A stretch of 64,000 bases of DNA from a candidate division FCPU426 bacterium (lineage in GTDB: Bacteria > Oederibacteriota > PGYV01 > Palsa-1178), in NCBI GenBank assembly GCA_963840035.1, contig CAWIXE010000002.1, forward strand, positions 512,001-576,000. Reading direction: 5' to 3'. The notes under the pieces are model-generated. The model searched no databases. It saw only the letters and a list, made by a program, of their open reading frames with translations, and was not told where the DNA came from. Positions 4,851-60,774 of the stretch are shown piece after piece. The translations under genes and the position numbers were made by a program. Numbering within the stretch: position 1 is the first letter of the stretch; each line of letters opens with the position of its first letter.

Positions 4851-5402
4851 GTGGACAAAAAGCTTAAAATTAAGAGTGAAATCCTTGACAAACCTTCCAT
4901 TGAGCGGGCATTGACCCGTATTTCCCATGAAATAATCGAAAAAAACAAAGGCGCTAAGAATGTCTATATCGTGGGTATACGCTCACGGGGCGATGTTTTA
5001 GCAGCCCGTATCGCTAAAAAAATCAATGAAATAGAGAATGTGGCAGTGCCTGTGGGCGCTGTGGATATTACATTTTACCGGGACGACTATGACCGTGTCA
5101 CAAAAGCTGAAGTAAAATCAACCGAACTGCCCGTGTCAGTGGATGATAAGGATATAGTTCTGGTGGATGACGTGCTTTATACGGGCAGGTCCACGCGCGC
5201 TGCCATGGATGTCATCATCGAATTCGGCAGGCCAAAAACCATTCAACTGGCTGTTCTCATAGACCGCGGGCATAGGGAACTGCCAATACAAGCGAATTAC
5301 GTAGGTAAAAATGTGCCGACAAGTTCTGAAGAAATGATAGTTTTAAAGTTACAGGAATCTGACGGCGAAGAAAAAGTTCTTCTTGCCGAAAAGGAGGCGT
5401 AA
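4851..5402 (+). CDS. pyrR: Pyrimidine operon attenuation protein / uracil phosphoribosyltransferase
   Basis: [41 protein letters not shown] start after ggagg. Confidence 0.97.
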
Positions 5403-5403
5403 G

Positions 5404-6337
5404 ATGTCACTTAACCATCTTATTTCACTGCAGGATATTTCAGCCGAACAGATAACAGAGATTTTAAATCTTGCTAAAACTTTTAAGGAAGTAAATGAAC
5501 GGCAGGTAAAAAAACTTCCCACGCTTAAAGGCAAAACTGTCGCCAACTTTTTCTTCGAAAATTCCACCAGGACCAAAACTTCGTTTGAAATAGCGGCAAA
5601 GAGGCTCTCGGCAGATGTTCTTAACCTGGCGATATCCACATCCTCAGTGGCCAAGGGTGAAACCCTGATCGATACCATCCGCACTATTGAAGCCATGCAG
5701 ATAGACATCGTAGTAATCAGGCACGGCGTTTCAGGCGTGCCTCATATGTTAACCAGCAAAATATCCTCCCATATAATAAACGCCGGAGACGGCATGCACG
5801 AGCACCCTACGCAGGGGCTGCTGGATATGTTTACCATGAGGGACAAAAAGGGCCACCTGGAAGGATTGACCGTGGCTTTGGTTGGCGACATAGCGCACTC
5901 GCGCGTGGCGCGCTCGAACATATGGGGGCTGAAAAAGATGGGGGCGAAAGTACGCGTTGTCGGCCCGGCAACGTCTCATACCGCGCGACATAGAACAAAT
6001 GGGCGTGGAAGTCTATAATGACCTTGAAAAAGGCATCAAGGGCGCTGATGTGGTAAACATACTCAGGATACAGCTTGAAAGGATGAAAAAGCATCTCTTC
6101 CCGACAATCAGGGAATACGCCATGCTCTTCGGGGTCAATACCACAAAATTAAAAAGCGCGAAGCCGGACTGCCTTGTCATGCATCCGGGGCCGATGAACC
6201 GCGGCATAGAAATATCGCCGAACGTGGCTGACGGGCCGCAGTCGGTCATAGAAGAACAGGTGACAAACGGAGTGGCTGTGAGAATGGCTGTCCTGTATCT
6301 CATGGGAGGAGGCAAATCAAATGAAATTATTGATTAA
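5404..6337 (+). CDS. pyrB: Aspartate carbamoyltransferase catalytic subunit, split by a one-base insertion near 5974
   Basis: FFENSTRT and [10 protein letters not shown] in the first frame; RIQLER and MHPGPMNRG in the second; removing T5974 restores VGPAT-LIPR. Confidence 0.93.
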
Positions 6338-7598: not shown

Positions 7599-7602
7599 GT
7601 AG

Positions 7603-7630
7603 GTGGTAAGTGATATGTGGTATGTGGTAA
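7603..7630. repeat. Left heptamer arm (GTGNTAN family) flanking the four-helix-bundle gene
   Basis: gtggtaa gtgatat gtggtat gtggtaa. Confidence 0.85.
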
Positions 7631-7684
7631 GGGAAAACTAAAAATATGACAGGACGTTTGGGCTTGAAAAATGGGGGGGCGCAA

Positions 7685-8059
7685 ATGAATGTTGTTAAGA
7701 GTTTTGAGGACCTTGAAGTGTGGAAAAAAGCAATAGATATATCTGATCTTACACATGCAATTGTAGATGATTTTCCAAAGCAGGCGATATGGACGCTGGG
7801 TACGCAGATGTTAAGGTCTTCTGTTTCTATAGGATCAAACATTGCAGAAGGATGCGAGCGCCAGCATACGCCGGAATACATACAATTTTGTTATATTGCC
7901 CTGGGATCATGTGCGGAACTATATACACAACTTATAATTGCAAAAAGAAGAAAGTATCTGCCTGAGGAAAAATATGATCAGATATCAGAAATGATCCAGC
8001 ATGAACGAAGAATGTTGCTGAATTTAACAAAAAGCCTGAAATTAAGAAGAAAACAGTAA
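7685..8059 (+). CDS. Four-helix-bundle protein (23S rRNA intervening-sequence protein / Avd-like family)
   Basis: SFEDLEVWKKA, QMLRSSVSIGSNIAEG, IALGSCAELYTQL are typical of this family. Confidence 0.92.
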   Translation: MNVVKSFEDLEVWKKAIDISDLTHAIVDDFPKQAIWTLGTQMLRSSVSIGSNIAEGCERQHTPEYIQFCYIALGSCAELYTQLIIAKRRKYLPEEKYDQISEMIQHERRMLLNLTKSLKLRRKQ

Positions 8060-8079
8060 CGTAATAAAAGGTATGGCTG

Positions 8080-8107
8080 CTGGCACGTAGCACGTACCAC
8101 TTATCAC
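8080..8107. repeat. Right heptamer arm, inverted relative to 7603-7630
   Basis: ctggcac gtagcac gtaccac ttatcac (reverse complement of GTGNTAN units). Confidence 0.85.
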
Positions 8108-12599: not shown

Positions 12600-12678
12600 G
12601 TAGGGGCGATTCACGAATCGCCCAAACGCTGACAATTTATACCGAAACCCTTGTAGGGGCGGCCCCGTGTGGCCGCCC
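12600..12678 (+). repeat. Two GTAG-type REP hairpins between carB and pyrK
   Basis: GTAGGGGCGATTCACGAATCGCCC (12600) and GTAGGGGCGGCCCCGTGTGGCCGCCC (12653). Confidence 0.85.
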
Positions 12679-12690
12679 GAAGGATGGACA

Positions 12691-30684: not shown

Positions 30685-30759
30685 AACTGAAAACTTGAAG
30701 CTGAAAAGTGAAAGTTGTGACAGAACCAGCTTTCAGTTTTCAATTTTAAATTTTAAGCT
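30685..30759. repeat. Inverted pair of heptamer arrays (ARYTGAA family)
   Basis: aactgaa aacttga agctgaa aagtgaa / accagct ttcagtt ttcaatt ttaaatt ttaagct. Confidence 0.75.
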
Positions 30760-32471: not shown

Positions 32472-32558
32472 TGGCGAGTGATGTGTGATATGTGATAAGT
32501 GAGGGCTTAAAACCGGATATTGAAATTCACTTTTCACATAGCACGCGCCACCCGGCAC
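32471..32558. repeat. Inverted pair of heptamer arrays (GTGNNNN family), no gene inside
   Basis: gtggcga gtgatgt gtgatat gtgataa gtgaggg / aattcac ttttcac atagcac gcgccac ccggcac. Confidence 0.8.
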
Positions 32559-32954: not shown

Positions 32955-32971
32955 TTCAAAACCTAAAACCC

Positions 32972-33064
32972 GGGCGGGCCACCGGCTCGCCCCTACGAAA
33001 ACAGAACAAAACGAAGTTAGTATGATTTGTCTTGTCCTCGTAGGGGCGAGCCGGTGGCTCGCCC
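32972..33064. repeat. Inverted REP pair (REPIN-like)
   Basis: Reverse-complement REP 32972-32996 and forward GTAGGGGCGAGCCGGTGGCTCGCCC at 33040. Confidence 0.9.
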
Positions 33065-33700: not shown

Positions 33701-33726
33701 GTTGTTATTGATTGGTTCTAGTTTTC

Positions 33727-33904
33727 GTAGGGGCGAGCCGGTGGCTCGCCCGGCTTTTGACCGGTCCAAACCAGGATCTAAAGCCGGGCGAGCCACCGGC
33801 TCGCCCCTACGAGGGCAAAGCATTACAGAACAAAGCCAGGCTGGATTTGTCTTGTTTTCGCAGGAGCGAGTCCTGCTTCGCTGGACATGGCCGGTGGCTC
33901 GCCC
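33727..33904. repeat. Three REPs (forward, reverse, interrupted forward)
   Basis: 33727-33751, 33786-33810 (reverse) and 33860-33904 carrying a 20-bp insert. Confidence 0.88.
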
Positions 33905-33941
33905 GGGTTTAGATTTAGAACAAAGATATAGAGGGGTCTAT

Positions 33942-34508
33942 ATGGAAAACAAGGGAAAAATGCCGGACCGCAGGTCTGTCCGTTTGCGTGGTTATGATTA
34001 CTCTCAGGCCGGGGCGTATTATGTCACGGTTTGTGTTGAAAGCCGCAGGTGTGTTTTATCAATGATTGATAACGCGGAAAGCAACCTTAATGACTACGGG
34101 GAAGCTGTAAGGGATGAAATATTGAAAACACCGCAAATCAGAACAAACATTATAATCGATGAATTTGTTATCATGCCGAACCACTTCCACTTAATCATAA
34201 TAATTAACTCTGAAAAAGGCGTCATACTGCCCGGTGTTATTAATAGTTATTCGCCCGAAAAGATGCCGTTTGAGCTTAATAAAGACTCGCTTGGCGCGGT
34301 AATGGCGCAAATTAAATCAATAACAACCAAGAAGATACGAAAACTTGGCTTAAAGGATTTTGAATGGCAGAGAGGATATTATGAACACGTTGTTAGGGAT
34401 GAAGAGGATTTGATGGTTAAAAAGGAGTATATAGTTAACAATCCACTACAGTGGGAGCTGGATGATTACAATCCGCATAATAAAAAGACAAAGGCAGAAA
34501 ACCCTTAA
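33942..34508 (+). mobile_element. REP-associated tyrosine transposase (RAYT, Y1/HUH family)
   Basis: RRSVRLRGYDYSQAGAYYVTVC, HUH motif MPNHFHLI, WQRGYYEHVVR, YIVNNP; REPs on both sides; upstream ORF extension is translated REP DNA. Confidence 0.92.
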
Positions 34509-38368: not shown

Positions 38369-39382
38369 ATGAGAATAGTCCTTGACGCTATGGGGAGTGA
38401 TAATGCCCCTCATGTTGAAATAGACGGGGCGCTGCAGGCGGTAAAAGAATTTTCTGATATTACTGTGGTGCTTGTCGGAAAAAAAGACGTGCTGGAACCT
38501 TTGCTTAAAAGCAAAGGCGATGCCGCATCCTTAAAAAGGATAGAAATCGTCAATGCCGATGAAGTTGTCACCATGTCGGACCACCCGGCAGAGGCTTTTA
38601 AAACAAAAAAGAATTCATCAATCGCGGTATCTGCCGCGCTCTTGAAGGAAAATAAAGCTGACGCGCTCGTGTCAGCCGGCAACACAGGCTCTGTAGTGGT
38701 ACACTCACTGCTTATTATAGGAAGGATACCCGGAGTTTCCAGGCCTGCTATACTTATCCCGATGCCCAACGCAAAGGGCTTTGGCGCGCTTTTAGACGCG
38801 GGCGGCAATGTGGACTGCAAGCCAGCACACCTGGTTCAGTTCGCGTTAATGGGAATACTTTATGCCAAACACATCCTGAAGATAGATAATCCTTCTGTTG
38901 GAATGGTGTCAGTGGGTGAAGAAGAGGAAAAAGGAAATGAACTCACCAACGAAACCAACGAGCTTTTCAAGACATCAGGACTGAACTATAAGGGCCATGT
39001 GGAGGGTAAGGACATCGTAAACGCAGTCACTGATGTTGCGGTATGCGACGGGTTTGTGGGAAACGTTATTTTAAAGTTCGGTGAAGGCCTCTCTGAGTTC
39101 CTGTTTAACGGCATAAAGGATGGCATAAAAAACGGGGGCATTCTTGCCATGATAGGCGGCATGCTTTTGAAGCCTGTTTTCAGCAAAATGAAGAAAAAAT
39201 TCAGTTACGACGAATACGGCGGAGCGCCGCTTATAGGCATAAAAAAACCTGTAATAATAACCCACGGCAGGGCCAATGTAAAGGCGATTAAAAACTCGAT
39301 CAGAGTAGCCGCGGAGTTCATCAAGGACCACATAAATGAAGAAATAGAAGAGGGAATAAAAGTCTTAGGAGGAGAGAAGTGA
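38369..39382 (+). CDS. plsX: Phosphate acyltransferase PlsX
   Basis: LDAMGSD, SAGNTG, CDGFVGNVILK, YGGAPL, HG. Confidence 0.96.
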   Translation: MRIVLDAMGSDNAPHVEIDGALQAVKEFSDITVVLVGKKDVLEPLLKSKGDAASLKRIEIVNADEVVTMSDHPAEAFKTKKNSSIAVSAALLKENKADALVSAGNTGSVVVHSLLIIGRIPGVSRPAILIPMPNAKGFGALLDAGGNVDCKPAHLVQFALMGILYAKHILKIDNPSVGMVSVGEEEEKGNELTNETNELFKTSGLNYKGHVEGKDIVNAVTDVAVCDGFVGNVILKFGEGLSEFLFNGIKDGIKNGGILAMIGGMLLKPVFSKMKKKFSYDEYGGAPLIGIKKPVIITHGRANVKAIKNSIRVAAEFIKDHINEEIEEGIKVLGGEK

Positions 39383-40359
39383 GCATAAAAGCGGGAATAC
39401 TCGGGTGCGGTTATTATGTGCCTGAAAGAATAATGACCAATTTTGAACTTGAGAAAATCGTTGATACATCCGACGAATGGATAAGAACCAGGACGGGTAT
39501 AGAGCAGAGGCGCATAGCTGCCGAAGGCGAATGCACGTCAGATATGGCTTTAAAAGCGGCTGAGCGCGCCATCAAGGACGCCGGCATTAATAAGGATGAG
39601 ATTGACCTCGTAGTTATACCGACTATCTGTCCGGATTACGCGTGGCCGGCTACGGCATGTATCACAACTGCAAAACTCGGATTGAAAAACGTGCCGGCTT
39701 TTGACGTTTCAGCCGCGTGCTCGGGTTTCATATACGGGCTGACAGTGGCCAGGTCCATGGTTGAGTCAGGGCTTTATAAAAGGGTCCTGCTTATAGCGGC
39801 CGAGAAATTTTCCACATACCTTGACTGGACAGACAGGAACACCTGCGTTTTAATGGGCGACGGTGCCGGAGCCATGGTAATAGGCCCCAGCGAGACCAGC
39901 CAGATAATGTCAACATATCTTAATTCCGACGGAAGCCATCCTGAATATCTTTGCCAGCCCGGAGGCGGATCTGTTATGCCTTTATCCCAGAAAGTGCTGG
40001 ATGAAAAGCAGAACTTCATGCACATGAACGGCAAGGAAATATATGTAAACGCCGTTGAGAAGATGCCGGAAGCCCTTGATAAGGCTATGGCGCTGGCGGG
40101 AGTCACCGCGGATCAGGTGGATTTTATGATATTCCACCAGGCAAACATAAGGATAATCCAGTACATAGCTAAAAAATTCAACGTACCTGATGAAAAAAAT
40201 ATAATAAACATACAGCGTTACGGCAACACTTCAGCCGCGACCATCCCGATAGCGTTCGCGGAAGCGTATGAAGCGGGGAAGATAAAAAGGGGCCACACAG
40301 TAGCATTCTCCGCTTTCGGCGGGGGATTGACGTGGGGCGGAGCGGTTGTAAAGTTCTAA
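39379..40359 (+). CDS. fabH: 3-oxoacyl-ACP synthase III
   Basis: DTSDEWIRTRTGI, AACSGF, HQAN, GNTSAA, GGGLTWG. Confidence 0.97.
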   Translation: MSIKAGILGCGYYVPERIMTNFELEKIVDTSDEWIRTRTGIEQRRIAAEGECTSDMALKAAERAIKDAGINKDEIDLVVIPTICPDYAWPATACITTAKLGLKNVPAFDVSAACSGFIYGLTVARSMVESGLYKRVLLIAAEKFSTYLDWTDRNTCVLMGDGAGAMVIGPSETSQIMSTYLNSDGSHPEYLCQPGGGSVMPLSQKVLDEKQNFMHMNGKEIYVNAVEKMPEALDKAMALAGVTADQVDFMIFHQANIRIIQYIAKKFNVPDEKNIINIQRYGNTSAATIPIAFAEAYEAGKIKRGHTVAFSAFGGGLTWGGAVVKF

Positions 40360-40363
40360 AAAT

Positions 40364-40440
40364 GTGATAAGTGATATGTGCTAAGTGGTATGTGAAAGAT
40401 GAAGCGGTACACATATCACATACCACACACCACATAGCAC
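40364..40440. repeat. Inverted pair of heptamer arrays (GTGNTAN family), no gene inside
   Basis: gtgataa gtgatat gtgctaa gtggtat gtgaaag / atatcac ataccac acaccac atagcac. Confidence 0.88.
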
Positions 40441-40464
40441 GAATTAATTTTTAAAGGAGTTTTT

Positions 40465-41400
40465 ATGAGCATCGCACTTGTTTTCCCCGGCCAGGGCGCG
40501 CAGTACGTGGGCATGGGTTTTGATTTCTGCGAGGGCAATGAAAGGGCGCACGCGATTTTTGCGGCGGCCGAAGCCGCGCTCCGGAGCAAACTTGATATCC
40601 GTTTAAAAGATGTCATGTTCATCGGCCCGGAAGAGGAATTAAAGAAGACTGATTATACGCAGCCCGCGATTTTTACCATGAGCTGCGCCATATATGAGGC
40701 ATTAAAGGACAGGTTCGCCGGAAAAGTGGCTTACACGGCAGGGCACAGCCTTGGCGAGTACAGCGCGCTTTACGCGGCAGGGGCGTTTTCATTTGAAGAC
40801 GGCATCAAGCTCGTCAGCCGCAGGGGCGCTCTTATGCAGGAAGCCTCAGTTAAGAATAAAGGCGGCATGGCAGCGGTGCTCGGGCTTGATGACGCAAAGA
40901 TTAAAGACCTTTGTGATAAGGCTGGGGCAGCGGGATATATAACGGCAGCAAACCTGAACTCCCCGGGACAGGTGGTAGTATCAGGAAGTATTGAAGGAAT
41001 AGACGCCGGAGAGGCCATCGCAAAGGAACTCGGCGCGAAAAGGTATATTAAACTAGCTGTAGCCGGAGCGTTCCATTCAAAGTTAATGCAGAGCGCGGCA
41101 GACAGCCTGAAAACAGAGATATCCGGATTTGGAATTAAAGACGCGGCCATACCCGTTATTTCAAACTTCCTGGCAGGCGAAGTAAAGACCTCCGGGCAGA
41201 TTCAGGAAGCCCTTATTAACCAGATTACAGGTTCGGTACGCTGGGTCGAGTCAGTCCAGTATATGATATCAAAGGGCGTTGATACATTCGTTGAAATAGG
41301 CCCGGGATGCGTGCTCTCAGGCCTTATAAAGAAGATAGACAGGAATGTAAAGGCTTTTAACGTAGATAAGCTTACAGACGTGGATAAGCTGACAGTTTAA
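40465..41400 (+). CDS. fabD: Malonyl-CoA:ACP transacylase
   Basis: FPGQGAQ, GHSLGEY, AFHS. Confidence 0.97.
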   Translation: MSIALVFPGQGAQYVGMGFDFCEGNERAHAIFAAAEAALRSKLDIRLKDVMFIGPEEELKKTDYTQPAIFTMSCAIYEALKDRFAGKVAYTAGHSLGEYSALYAAGAFSFEDGIKLVSRRGALMQEASVKNKGGMAAVLGLDDAKIKDLCDKAGAAGYITAANLNSPGQVVVSGSIEGIDAGEAIAKELGAKRYIKLAVAGAFHSKLMQSAADSLKTEISGFGIKDAAIPVISNFLAGEVKTSGQIQEALINQITGSVRWVESVQYMISKGVDTFVEIGPGCVLSGLIKKIDRNVKAFNVDKLTDVDKLTV

Positions 41401-45790: not shown

Positions 45791-45890
45791 AGTTCGGAGT
45801 TCGGAGGGTAGGGTTCGGAGTTCGGTCCGTTAGATCGAACTCCGAACTCCGAACTCCGAACCCCGAACTTCGAACTTCGAACTTCGAACT
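45791..45890. repeat. Inverted pair of heptamer arrays (AGTTCGR family)
   Basis: agttcgg agttcgg agggtag ggttcgg agttcgg / eight YCGAACY units at 45835-45890. Confidence 0.9.
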
Positions 45891-47788: not shown

Positions 47789-47811
47789 ATTAGCATTTCA
47801 ATTACGTCCCT

Positions 47812-48357
47812 GTAGGGGCCGCCCCATGTGGCGGCCCGCACGGTGTTTCGCGTGACGGGTGGATGTGTCCTTGTAGGGGCGGACCTATGTGTCCGCCCGC
47901 ACAGCTTTTCGCGTGGCGGGTGGATGTGTTTTTTGAAGTAACAATGGCTTTGCTTGTATCCTGGCTTGAGATAATCAACATGGCTGGAGGAAGTGTGATG
48001 CTGGAAGGGTATCATTACGGATTGCTAAATTGGGAAGCAGTTGATTAGTCCGCAATCCTCCGAGCCCATACGTTCCTTCAAAAAGCCACATCCACCCGCC
48101 ACGCGCAGCGTTAAAACGCAAATGTGCTTTGTAACGCAATGATTCTAGATTCTTTGTGTTCCTGTAGGGGCCGCCCCCATGCTCGCCGGCTGAAGCTTCA
48201 GCGAAAGCCGGTGGCAGCCCGCAAGGAGGAACAACACAACACCGTTCTTTTTGTTAAGACTTTGATCTCGTAGGGGCGAGCCGGTGGCTCGCCCGGCCTT
48301 AGATCTAAACCCGGGCGAGCCACCGGCCATGTCCAGCGAAGCAGGACTCGCCCCTAC
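47812..48357. repeat. Complex REP cluster with an internal inverted repeat
   Basis: GTAG REPs at 47812, 47873, 48164, 48270 and a reverse REP at 48313-48357; inverted repeat 47910-47938 / 48076-48105. Confidence 0.82.
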
Positions 48358-59690: not shown

Positions 59691-60000
59691 CAAGTGCCGG
59701 GCGAGCCGCCGGCTCGCCCGGCACTTGACTTTGTTGGTATGTCTTGTCTTGTTTTCGTAGGGGCGAGCCGGTGGCTCGCCCGGCCTTTGACTTTGTTGGT
59801 ATGTCTTGTCTTGCTTTCGTAGGGGCGAGCCGCCGGCTCGCCCGGCCTTTGACTTTGTTGGTATGTCTTGTCTTGCTTTCGTAGGGGCGAGCCGCCGGCT
59901 CGCCCGGCCTTTGACTTTGTTGGTATGTATTGTCTTGTTTTCGTAGGGGCGATCCGGCCATGTCCGTTGAAGCTTCAGCGAAAACGGATGGCTCGCCCGG
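59691..60000 (+). repeat. Tandem REP array with 62-bp period
   Basis: GTAG at 59757, 59819, 59881, 59943 with near-identical linkers; preceded by a perfect palindrome at 59691-59727. Confidence 0.92.
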
Positions 60001-60165: not shown

Positions 60166-60774
60166 ATGACGCATATTGACATAAAAGACATTACCCCGGC
60201 AGAGCTCCGGGCCATACAGGACCATAAGTACTTCATGTCCCAAAAAGAAGGCAAGGAAGTCACCATAGAAGAGGCCATAAAGGATTTTCTTGAAAAATAC
60301 CTGGATGAATGGCGTCTTGAAAAAACCCGTAATGACAACATGGAACAGGTGGCAAAGATAAAGGATTACATGGCAAAAGGCGGCGACCTGGAGGACTGGT
60401 CGGAAGAATACGCGCCGGTATGGAGGACTGAAAGGGAATCCCTGGAAAAAAATCAGTTTCTAAGCCGTGTACTTACGGTCAATATTGACCATGGCCTGCA
60501 TGTCAGGCCTTCGGGAAAATTGGTAACGATAGCCAAGAAATATGACTGTGAGATATATGTCCACAGGGAAGGCATGCAGCACCATAATTTTAAGCTGGAT
60601 GGCAAACCCTTTATGAATGTCAAATCCGTCCTTGCGGCCCTTGAGCTGGTATCAATGTGCGTCTCAAAAGGCGAGAAACTTGAATTTCTGGCATACGGCA
60701 AGCAGGCGGGAGAAGCGCTTGATTCCATAGAAAGGGTCGTCACCAGCAGGCTCGGGGACGTGGATAAAATATGA
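60166..60774 (+). CDS. HPr-family phosphocarrier domain fused to an N-terminal DUF4032-like region
   Basis: C-terminal GLHVRP...NVKS...GKQAGEAL (HPr); N-terminal IQDHKYFMSQKEGKEV..EEA..DF. Confidence 0.75.
   Translation: MTHIDIKDITPAELRAIQDHKYFMSQKEGKEVTIEEAIKDFLEKYLDEWRLEKTRNDNMEQVAKIKDYMAKGGDLEDWSEEYAPVWRTERESLEKNQFLSRVLTVNIDHGLHVRPSGKLVTIAKKYDCEIYVHREGMQHHNFKLDGKPFMNVKSVLAALELVSMCVSKGEKLEFLAYGKQAGEALDSIERVVTSRLGDVDKI

Follow-up and report, generated by a model that had tools for sequence, protein, structure and literature searches.

A possible non-autonomous copy of a heptamer-armed four-helix-bundle cassette between fabH and fabD of a candidate division FCPU426 bacterium

The gap between fabH and fabD in the genome studied here (G000) holds a short inverted repeat built from GTGNTAN heptamers. 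We put at about even the chance that this element is a non-autonomous copy of a heptamer-armed cassette, the full form of which encloses a four-helix-bundle gene, and that it was gained as a short unit and not left behind by a lost gene. The observed basis of this reading is the anatomy of the element, the presence of 21 empty pairs and one loaded copy of the same word, at least 204 heptamer pairs in the genome, their proximity to stop codons with mostly one word per gap, and the absence of the word from the nearest sampled genomes. Moreover, relatives carry other words and never a gene at this site, and empty pairs of other words share a spacer that occurs in both orientations.

The element comprises 77 bases (40364..40440 of the window, the whole stretch of 64,000 nucleotides that was analysed) with inverted GTGNTAN arms and no gene inside. 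Its 5' arm (40364..40394, plus strand) consists of the units GTGATAA, GTGATAT, GTGCTAA and GTGGTAT followed by GTG, and the inverted 3' arm (40410..40440, minus strand) reads GTGCTAT, GTGGTGT, GTGGTAT and GTGATAT, again followed by GTG, on the minus strand. A spacer of 15 nt without an ORF (40395..40409, plus strand) forms the loop of the hairpin. The first-pass annotation had counted five plus four units about 14 bp apart, which we correct to four units plus a partial one on each side of 15 nt. It had placed the element correctly: the first arm starts 4 nt past the stop codon (40357-40359) of fabH (39379..40359, plus strand; above the NCBIfam cut-off for TIGR00747), and the second ends ahead of AAGGAG (40454..40459, plus strand), a Shine-Dalgarno-like motif of fabD that was read from the sequence and lies outside the stem. 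From the end of the 3' arm to the ATG of fabD (40465..41400, plus strand; above the NCBIfam cut-off for TIGR00128; ATG at 40465) there are 24 nt. Two-unit matches to GTGNTAN were found ten times in the window, with 0.02 expected, and are therefore not due to chance. RNA folding gave z scores of -4.1 for the sense strand and -5.5 for the antisense strand, and the arms were predicted to pair one unit out of register, in line with the earlier remark that the hairpin could form in several registers. The copy may be tolerated because the stem would fold out of the mRNA, so that the stop codon comes to lie about 28 nt from the next start and the ribosome-binding site stays free. No Rfam family matched the element or the window at its gathering score, two matches below it being chance matches, and no tRNA genes were found in the window.

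The same word, in the same polarity, flanks a gene elsewhere in the window, a family link that was already drawn in the first-pass annotation and that we confirm. In this loaded copy the 5' arm (7603..7630, plus strand) follows the stop of a dihydroorotase-like gene, the cargo is a four-helix-bundle gene (7685..8059, plus strand; PF05635 and TIGR02436; a relative of PDB 2GSC and 2RLD) with a longer frame beginning at 7646, and the 3' arm (8084..8107, minus strand) is predicted to pair with the 5' arm around the gene. A second, more decayed empty pair lies behind a recJ-like gene (32478..32544, plus strand). In the whole genome, 46 GTGNTAN arrays of at least two perfect units were found; the 31 seed clusters of the word resolve into 21 complete empty pairs, the two arms of the loaded copy, three partial elements and five two-unit matches within genes. 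After curation this leaves 21 empty pairs and a single loaded copy. All 21 empty pairs lie between co-directional genes and 17 start at most 8 nt from a stop codon; four to five units are found in 16 of the 5' arms and 18 of the 3' arms. The arm order is fixed, with the GTG arm first and no pair in the reverse order. The fabH-fabD element is ordinary within a genome that is saturated by its family. At two further sites of this family (C2:1321072 and C3:48638) the genes of relatives overlap or nearly touch, and gain of the element was accompanied by extra sequence before the next start. Outside G000 the word is rare: among 37 genomes it was matched 68 times in G000, 14 times in G010, and not at all in the seven other genomes of the same family or in the remaining 28. 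The paired pattern was found in one of 99 genomes of the phylum, that of the window itself, and no match was obtained in viral contigs.

GTGNTAN is one of many words that follow the same rules. Period 7 is dominant among the tandem repeats of G000 (994 arrays), and a search with about 30 seed words yielded at least 204 inverted heptamer pairs with a spacer of up to 100 nt compared with about 10 pairs in direct orientation. These counts are lower bounds since the list leaves out decayed pairs, and the fabH-fabD element itself, and the array detector misses decayed arrays; the gene caller used missed the cargo gene as well. Inverted pairs with longer spacers are scarce (6 at 100-200 nt and 4 at 200-400 nt), near the background of direct repeats. 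Arrays were scored in 488 of 2261 co-directional gaps. As about a fifth of these gaps are occupied, the underlying process remodels operon mRNAs extensively. Where a co-directional gap has 80 nt or more to spare, 33 of 44 pairs begin no further than 15 nt from the stop codon, with 5.5 expected, and only two end near the next start. In contrast, such closeness to a stop was found for the GTAGGGGC-type palindromes of the genome in no more than 6 of 114 gaps. TGA stops are under-represented ahead of the elements (12/166 versus 256/1673, p 0.004). New copies would accordingly be placed at the junction behind a stop codon, or survive only there. Besides, two words share a gap less often than expected (17 of the 488 occupied gaps versus about 40, p 4e-5), which suggests that an incoming copy often displaces the resident one or is excluded by it. 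Since many words in one genome obey the same rules, namely four to five units, fixed polarity, proximity to a stop and mostly one word per gap, one common process is indicated, against word-specific explanations such as quadruplexes.

The regularity of these arrays bears on one conceivable origin, neutral slippage repeats that became inverted by accident, which we regard as scarcely credible. One 3' arm of the GTGNTAN family (C2:654249-654339) has been expanded to 13 identical units, as slippage would predict, and this is contrary to a general avoidance of identical neighbours. With that arm left out, adjacent identical units are found once among 127 in the GTGNTAN family compared with 7.3 expected, and 78 times among 729 across 11 word classes compared with 131 expected. 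As neighbouring units avoid identity, simple slippage fails as the origin, and it leaves the fixed polarity, the fixed arm length and the recurrence of one word at 21 distant sites unaccounted for. While slippage is contradicted as the origin, it may still have a part in shaping the arms through the removal of identical neighbours.

A second possibility is that the arms are written or exchanged singly at gene boundaries, the 5' arm after a stop and the 3' arm before a ribosome-binding site, with target DNA as the spacer. Polarity is indeed retained by single arms, with the 5' word close to the stop in 97 of 111 cases and the 3' word close to the start in 57 of 74, and an arm agrees no better with its own partner than with arms taken from other elements (0.871 versus 0.869). 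At a looser threshold 26 multi-word gaps were obtained in G000, about 13 of which appeared by eye to be hybrids with the 5' arm of one word and the 3' arm of another; hybrid gaps also occur in G010. Examples are C2:58281, C2:400556 and C3:261546 and about ten more in G000 as well as L065 and L073, each arm being in its normal polarity, and at some of them the flanking genes are adjacent in relatives too. However, such hybrids are also obtainable by a single deletion across two adjacent elements, and they number about 13 against 218 same-word pairs. Moreover, spacers made of target DNA should resemble the bare gaps at orthologous sites, and no significant resemblance was found (p 0.17, 23 rows); spacers with a shared core occur at unrelated sites. 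We therefore give little credence to the writing of single arms.

A spacer centred on TATTATAATA is common to 14 empty pairs of three word classes in G000 and to four in G002, and it occurs in both orientations relative to transcription, which means that empties can be copied as units. The TATTATAATA-palindrome spacer is 35-70 nt long, has small side hairpins and carries a -10-like hexamer on both strands; examples are C1:689104, C1:775829, C3:38658 and C1:116869 in G000 as well as L106, L127, L134 and L138. At fabH-fabD its core was found in G002 and G007 and partly in G003 and G005. The GTGNTAN spacers showed no overall kinship (mean score 4.36 versus 4.17 for shuffled spacers), and that of the fabH-fabD element has no significant likeness to other GTGNTAN spacers or to the inner flanks of the loaded copy. 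Copying as a unit has thus been shown only for other words, and insertion as a unit is inferred for GTGNTAN.

The first-pass annotation had interpreted the element as a footprint left after cargo loss or as a landing site, and it had proposed to look in related genomes for a four-helix-bundle gene or another small ORF between equivalent arms. In our comparison 84 fabD loci (30 from genomes and 54 from metagenomes) were used, 42 of which yielded the fabH-fabD gap; 33 gaps were distinct, that of G000 included. None of the 32 distinct gaps of relatives contained a gene; the gaps reached 208 nt at most, and no ORF in them exceeded 46 codons. Heptamer arrays were scored in seven of them, none of GTGNTAN, and 25 scored none. 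The words are of the ACAATT type in G005, the AAAATT type in G002, the AGTTTT type in G004 and G006, the CCGGAAT type in G011, the TTCCAGG type in G016 (one arm) and the GTGC type in L197; one further array was recognised by eye in L196. In L026, a distant genome of the phylum, an inverted pair of another word was seen by eye before fabD, and it is outside these counts since the upstream gene was not scored as fabH. With G000 included, the site is occupied in 8 of 33 lineages and never with a gene. It is thus repeatedly occupied and never loaded, and we saw no sign that loaded and empty forms sharing the same arms turn into each other.

Accordingly, neither part of the earlier interpretation was supported at fabH-fabD. 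For a footprint, a loaded cassette would have been inserted between fabH and fabD and its gene later deleted between the arms. Word and polarity are those of the lineage-specific loaded copy, relatives often have broken cargo genes (11 matches above the cut-off with internal stops), and unrelated spacers would fit independent deletions. However, the spacers of the GTGNTAN empties do not resemble the inner flanks of the loaded copy (p 0.13), at least 204 empties face four armed genes with few intermediate lengths, and empties with a shared core have spread as units. Relatives gave 30 cargo loci, loaded or unarmed; five of them mapped cleanly to gaps of G000, seven had no match, and the rest were ambiguous or lacked two matching neighbours. 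At the five mapped sites G000 holds an empty pair in two cases, which fits a footprint, and scores no array in three; the two pairs have opposite polarity, however, and two of five equals the base rate of about one third. Together with the gene-less gaps of the relatives, this makes a footprint unlikely. The two matching sites are those of L032 and L046, which are loaded there and are represented in G000 by an empty pair whose near-identical word is inside out (n=2). These two and the arms shared with the loaded copy are also what can be cited for empty pairs as acceptors of a later four-helix-bundle gene insertion. Against this, five of five relatives have in place of the loaded GTGNTAN site (near 7600) a bare gap, 34-53 nt long with the stop and start codons counted, and occupation of fabH-fabD in 8 of 33 lineages never led to a gene. 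We hold a landing site to be very improbable.

For the non-autonomous copy that we favour, the gain behind the fabH stop would have taken place after the lineage split from the sampled relatives, with other lineages taking other words there. At sites that are occupied in G000 the gaps of relatives are shorter by a median of 51 nt (67 rows), and orthologues were retrieved for eight GTGNTAN sites, among which fabH-fabD alone carries arrays in relatives. The same word was kept at a minority of shared sites (6 of 22 rows, with 1.9 expected by chance). The tree places G002 inside the carriers of the AGTTTT-type word, the alternative not being rejected (AU p 0.16, 2000 replicates), so that the tree does not force a replacement at fabH-fabD, where overwriting is plausible. 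A genome-wide sharing of occupied sites with swapped words appeared at first (odds ratio 2.5, p 0.017, 379 sites) and was gone once gap size was controlled (odds ratio 0.98, 241 sites). Similarly, eight of nine GTG sites of G010 seemed to be shared, and a blind 400-kb sample gave none of six by the detector and one of six by eye, which is a weak test with six occupied sites. The absence of gap-size-controlled site sharing counts against our reading, as do the lack of a correlation between protein and word and the failure to find a mobilising enzyme.

Another explanation is that selection maintains or restores a hairpin of any sequence between fabH and fabD as an mRNA stabiliser, an RNase III site, a modulator of translation or a terminator. 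The arrays of five of five folded relatives are stable (z -2.9 to -5.6), and occupancy of the site (7/32) can be set against arrays in 3-16% of all orthologous gaps in those genomes. Across the genome there is a slight excess of G-U pairs on the sense strand (128 versus 89, p 0.01) with a small energy advantage, which could also come from a mutational strand bias. In E. coli, palindromes closer than 16 nt to a stop codon were described to lower translation in the available text of one study (PMC12306157), and by analogy a stem 4 nt behind the stop could affect translation of fabH. Nevertheless, 25 of the 32 relatives score no array at this site, the two arms show no compensatory match, G-U pairs are balanced in the GTGNTAN family (38 versus 38), and selection for a hairpin leaves a fixed word at 21 sites unexplained. 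The GC-rich stem with a U-run of a conserved intrinsic terminator is not present on the sense strand either. The first-pass annotation had named as its own counter-case a site where relatives never carry cargo and the hairpin is an ordinary conserved terminator or stabiliser; the former holds, whereas the hairpin is not conserved and does not resemble a terminator on the sense strand. Selection for a host hairpin thus seems improbable to us as the origin of the element, and an effect on expression is compatible with a non-autonomous copy as a side role.

The association of heptamer arms with four-helix-bundle genes extends well beyond this genome. G000 has seven PF05635 genes above the cut-off, four of which lie, by eye, between inverted arms, and no two of these four share a word. 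The other three (C2:73387, C3:492535 and C2:1127107) have repeats upstream only, with no matching downstream arm. When 79 homologues of the cargo gene, drawn from many phyla, were compared with 74 control flanks, inverted heptamer arms were found at 45 of the former and none of the latter, and several of the top matches have words starting with GTG. Genomes with more cargo genes have denser arrays (rho 0.84 in eight related genomes, which are not independent), and G005 has arrays with no PF05635 match. Identity between cargo proteins had no predictive value for the word (Mantel rho 0.005, p 0.44; 28 representatives below 65% identity). Between long-spaced arms no other true cargo was found besides PF05635; 13 further ORFs from such pairs, 10 matching unrelated Pfam families and three matching none, were taken as chance pairings of neighbouring arms. 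A search for PF13366 did not find it, and the cargo protein gave a weak match to NF033474. To our knowledge, no catalytic role has been described for this protein. PDB entries 2GSC and 2RLD each list five chains. In the literature available to us, the title of the 2GSC paper names five bundles, and the cargo family is described as resembling Avd (PMC10053308). A five-subunit four-helix protein might, as a guess, recognise the four to five units of an arm and help to spread them. Our search, which covered openly accessible articles without supplements, found no literature linking four-helix-bundle genes to heptamer arms.

Several known systems share features with the element. The dispersed heptamer repeats of Xanthomonas (GGGAATC) and Nostoc have five fixed positions of seven and mostly four units, are about 90% intergenic, lie mostly between aligned genes near the end of the upstream gene, and form 70-75 inverted pairs per Xanthomonas genome, according to the available text (PMC4692102). 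The fabH-fabD element is similar in its 7-nt unit, its approximately four units, its location between aligned genes near the upstream stop, and its close inverted pairing on opposite strands. However, the GTGNTAN units lack the GGG run of a quadruplex-forming G-tract. The available text on Xanthomonas and Nostoc explains one G-rich word by G-quadruplexes and makes no link to four-helix bundles (PMC4692102), whereas G000 has many words, most without G-tracts, in arms of four to five units that are tied to four-helix-bundle genes. The TAACTGA repeats of Beggiatoaceae are present as more than 100 intergenic heptamer sets of two to six units, oriented to genes and patchy across lineages, and the available text considers a spread by a mobile element (PMC4679880). 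These repeats are described as direct and near start codons, and the terms 'helix bundle' and 'intervening sequence' are absent from the main text (PMC4679880). In ORF-bearing intervening sequences of 23S rRNA an S23p gene is enclosed by a terminal stem, the 5' arm of which contains tandem heptamers, and RNase III was described in the available text to cut within the stem (PMC4990558). We took S23p as PF05635-type from its Pfam name and the available text of PMC10053308. The loaded copy (7603-8107) likewise has a stem around an ORF, whereas the fabH-fabD element has the stem without an ORF and lies between protein genes and not in an rRNA helix.

REP sequences and REPINs consist of a GTAG-type foot and a short palindrome and flank the gene of a RAYT transposase. 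Heptamer pairs resemble REPINs in that they are inverted repeats with many intergenic copies, are specific to a lineage, flank one small gene and are found empty in their hundreds, and by this analogy the fabH-fabD element would work like a REPIN-type non-autonomous element. Unlike in REP/REPIN-RAYT systems, the arms are tandem heptamers and not GTAG-led palindromes, and the flanked gene is a PF05635 gene and no transposase. The window does contain a gene for a RAYT-like tyrosine transposase (33702-34508; NF047646, below the cut-off), which has its own palindromes that do not hug stop codons, unlike the heptamer pairs. These belong to a separate GTAGGGGC palindrome family (at about 32968-33062, 12600-12680, 47806-47929 and 59699-59956) that includes a 62-nt tandem array. 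A MITE would have a target-site duplication, and none was found (flank match 3.1 versus 2.9 permuted, p 0.14, 21 elements), nor was a cognate transposase with the same ends; shared internal sequence as in MITEs was not detected in GTGNTAN overall and was found in the words with the TATTATAATA core. Avd is an accessory protein of diversity-generating retroelements (DGRs), and no reverse transcriptase (PF00078) was found in G000, the genome being 98% complete, in contrast to such elements. Six reverse transcriptase genes with identical scores were found in G010 and none in G000, G002, G006 or G011.

We tentatively propose an undescribed class of transposase-free mobile element, made up of four-helix-bundle genes and heptamer arms, that would target the junction behind stop codons; a pentamer would read an arm of four to five heptamers, gene-less hairpins would be moved in trans in their hundreds, and the resident copy would be overwritten by a new one. 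We consider this possible but short of probable. If true, the fabH-fabD gap would record successive overwriting by at least six words, and such a class would explain both the surplus of 7-nt repeats that has long been noted in bacteria and how the ORF-bearing rRNA intervening sequences arose. So far, intergenic heptamer repeats have been treated one genus at a time, and different explanations, such as quadruplexes and translation signals, have been given. The value of the fabH-fabD element is that of a test site, as relatives have differing words and never a gene in this gap, and as a stem 4 nt behind a stop in a fatty-acid operon is directly assayable.

Arrays of at least eight other words were seen in the window, most of them just behind stop codons (3489, 12985, 23273, 30690-30754, 35878, 37379, 41402, 45791-45890 and 47722), and one array of another word sits between fabD and fabG. 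An aspartate carbamoyltransferase-like gene (5383-6337) is present as two overlapping frames of 211 and 126 codons, possibly due to a frameshift or an assembly error. Besides, the region 60166-60774 encodes a protein of 202 residues with an HPr-like C-terminal half.
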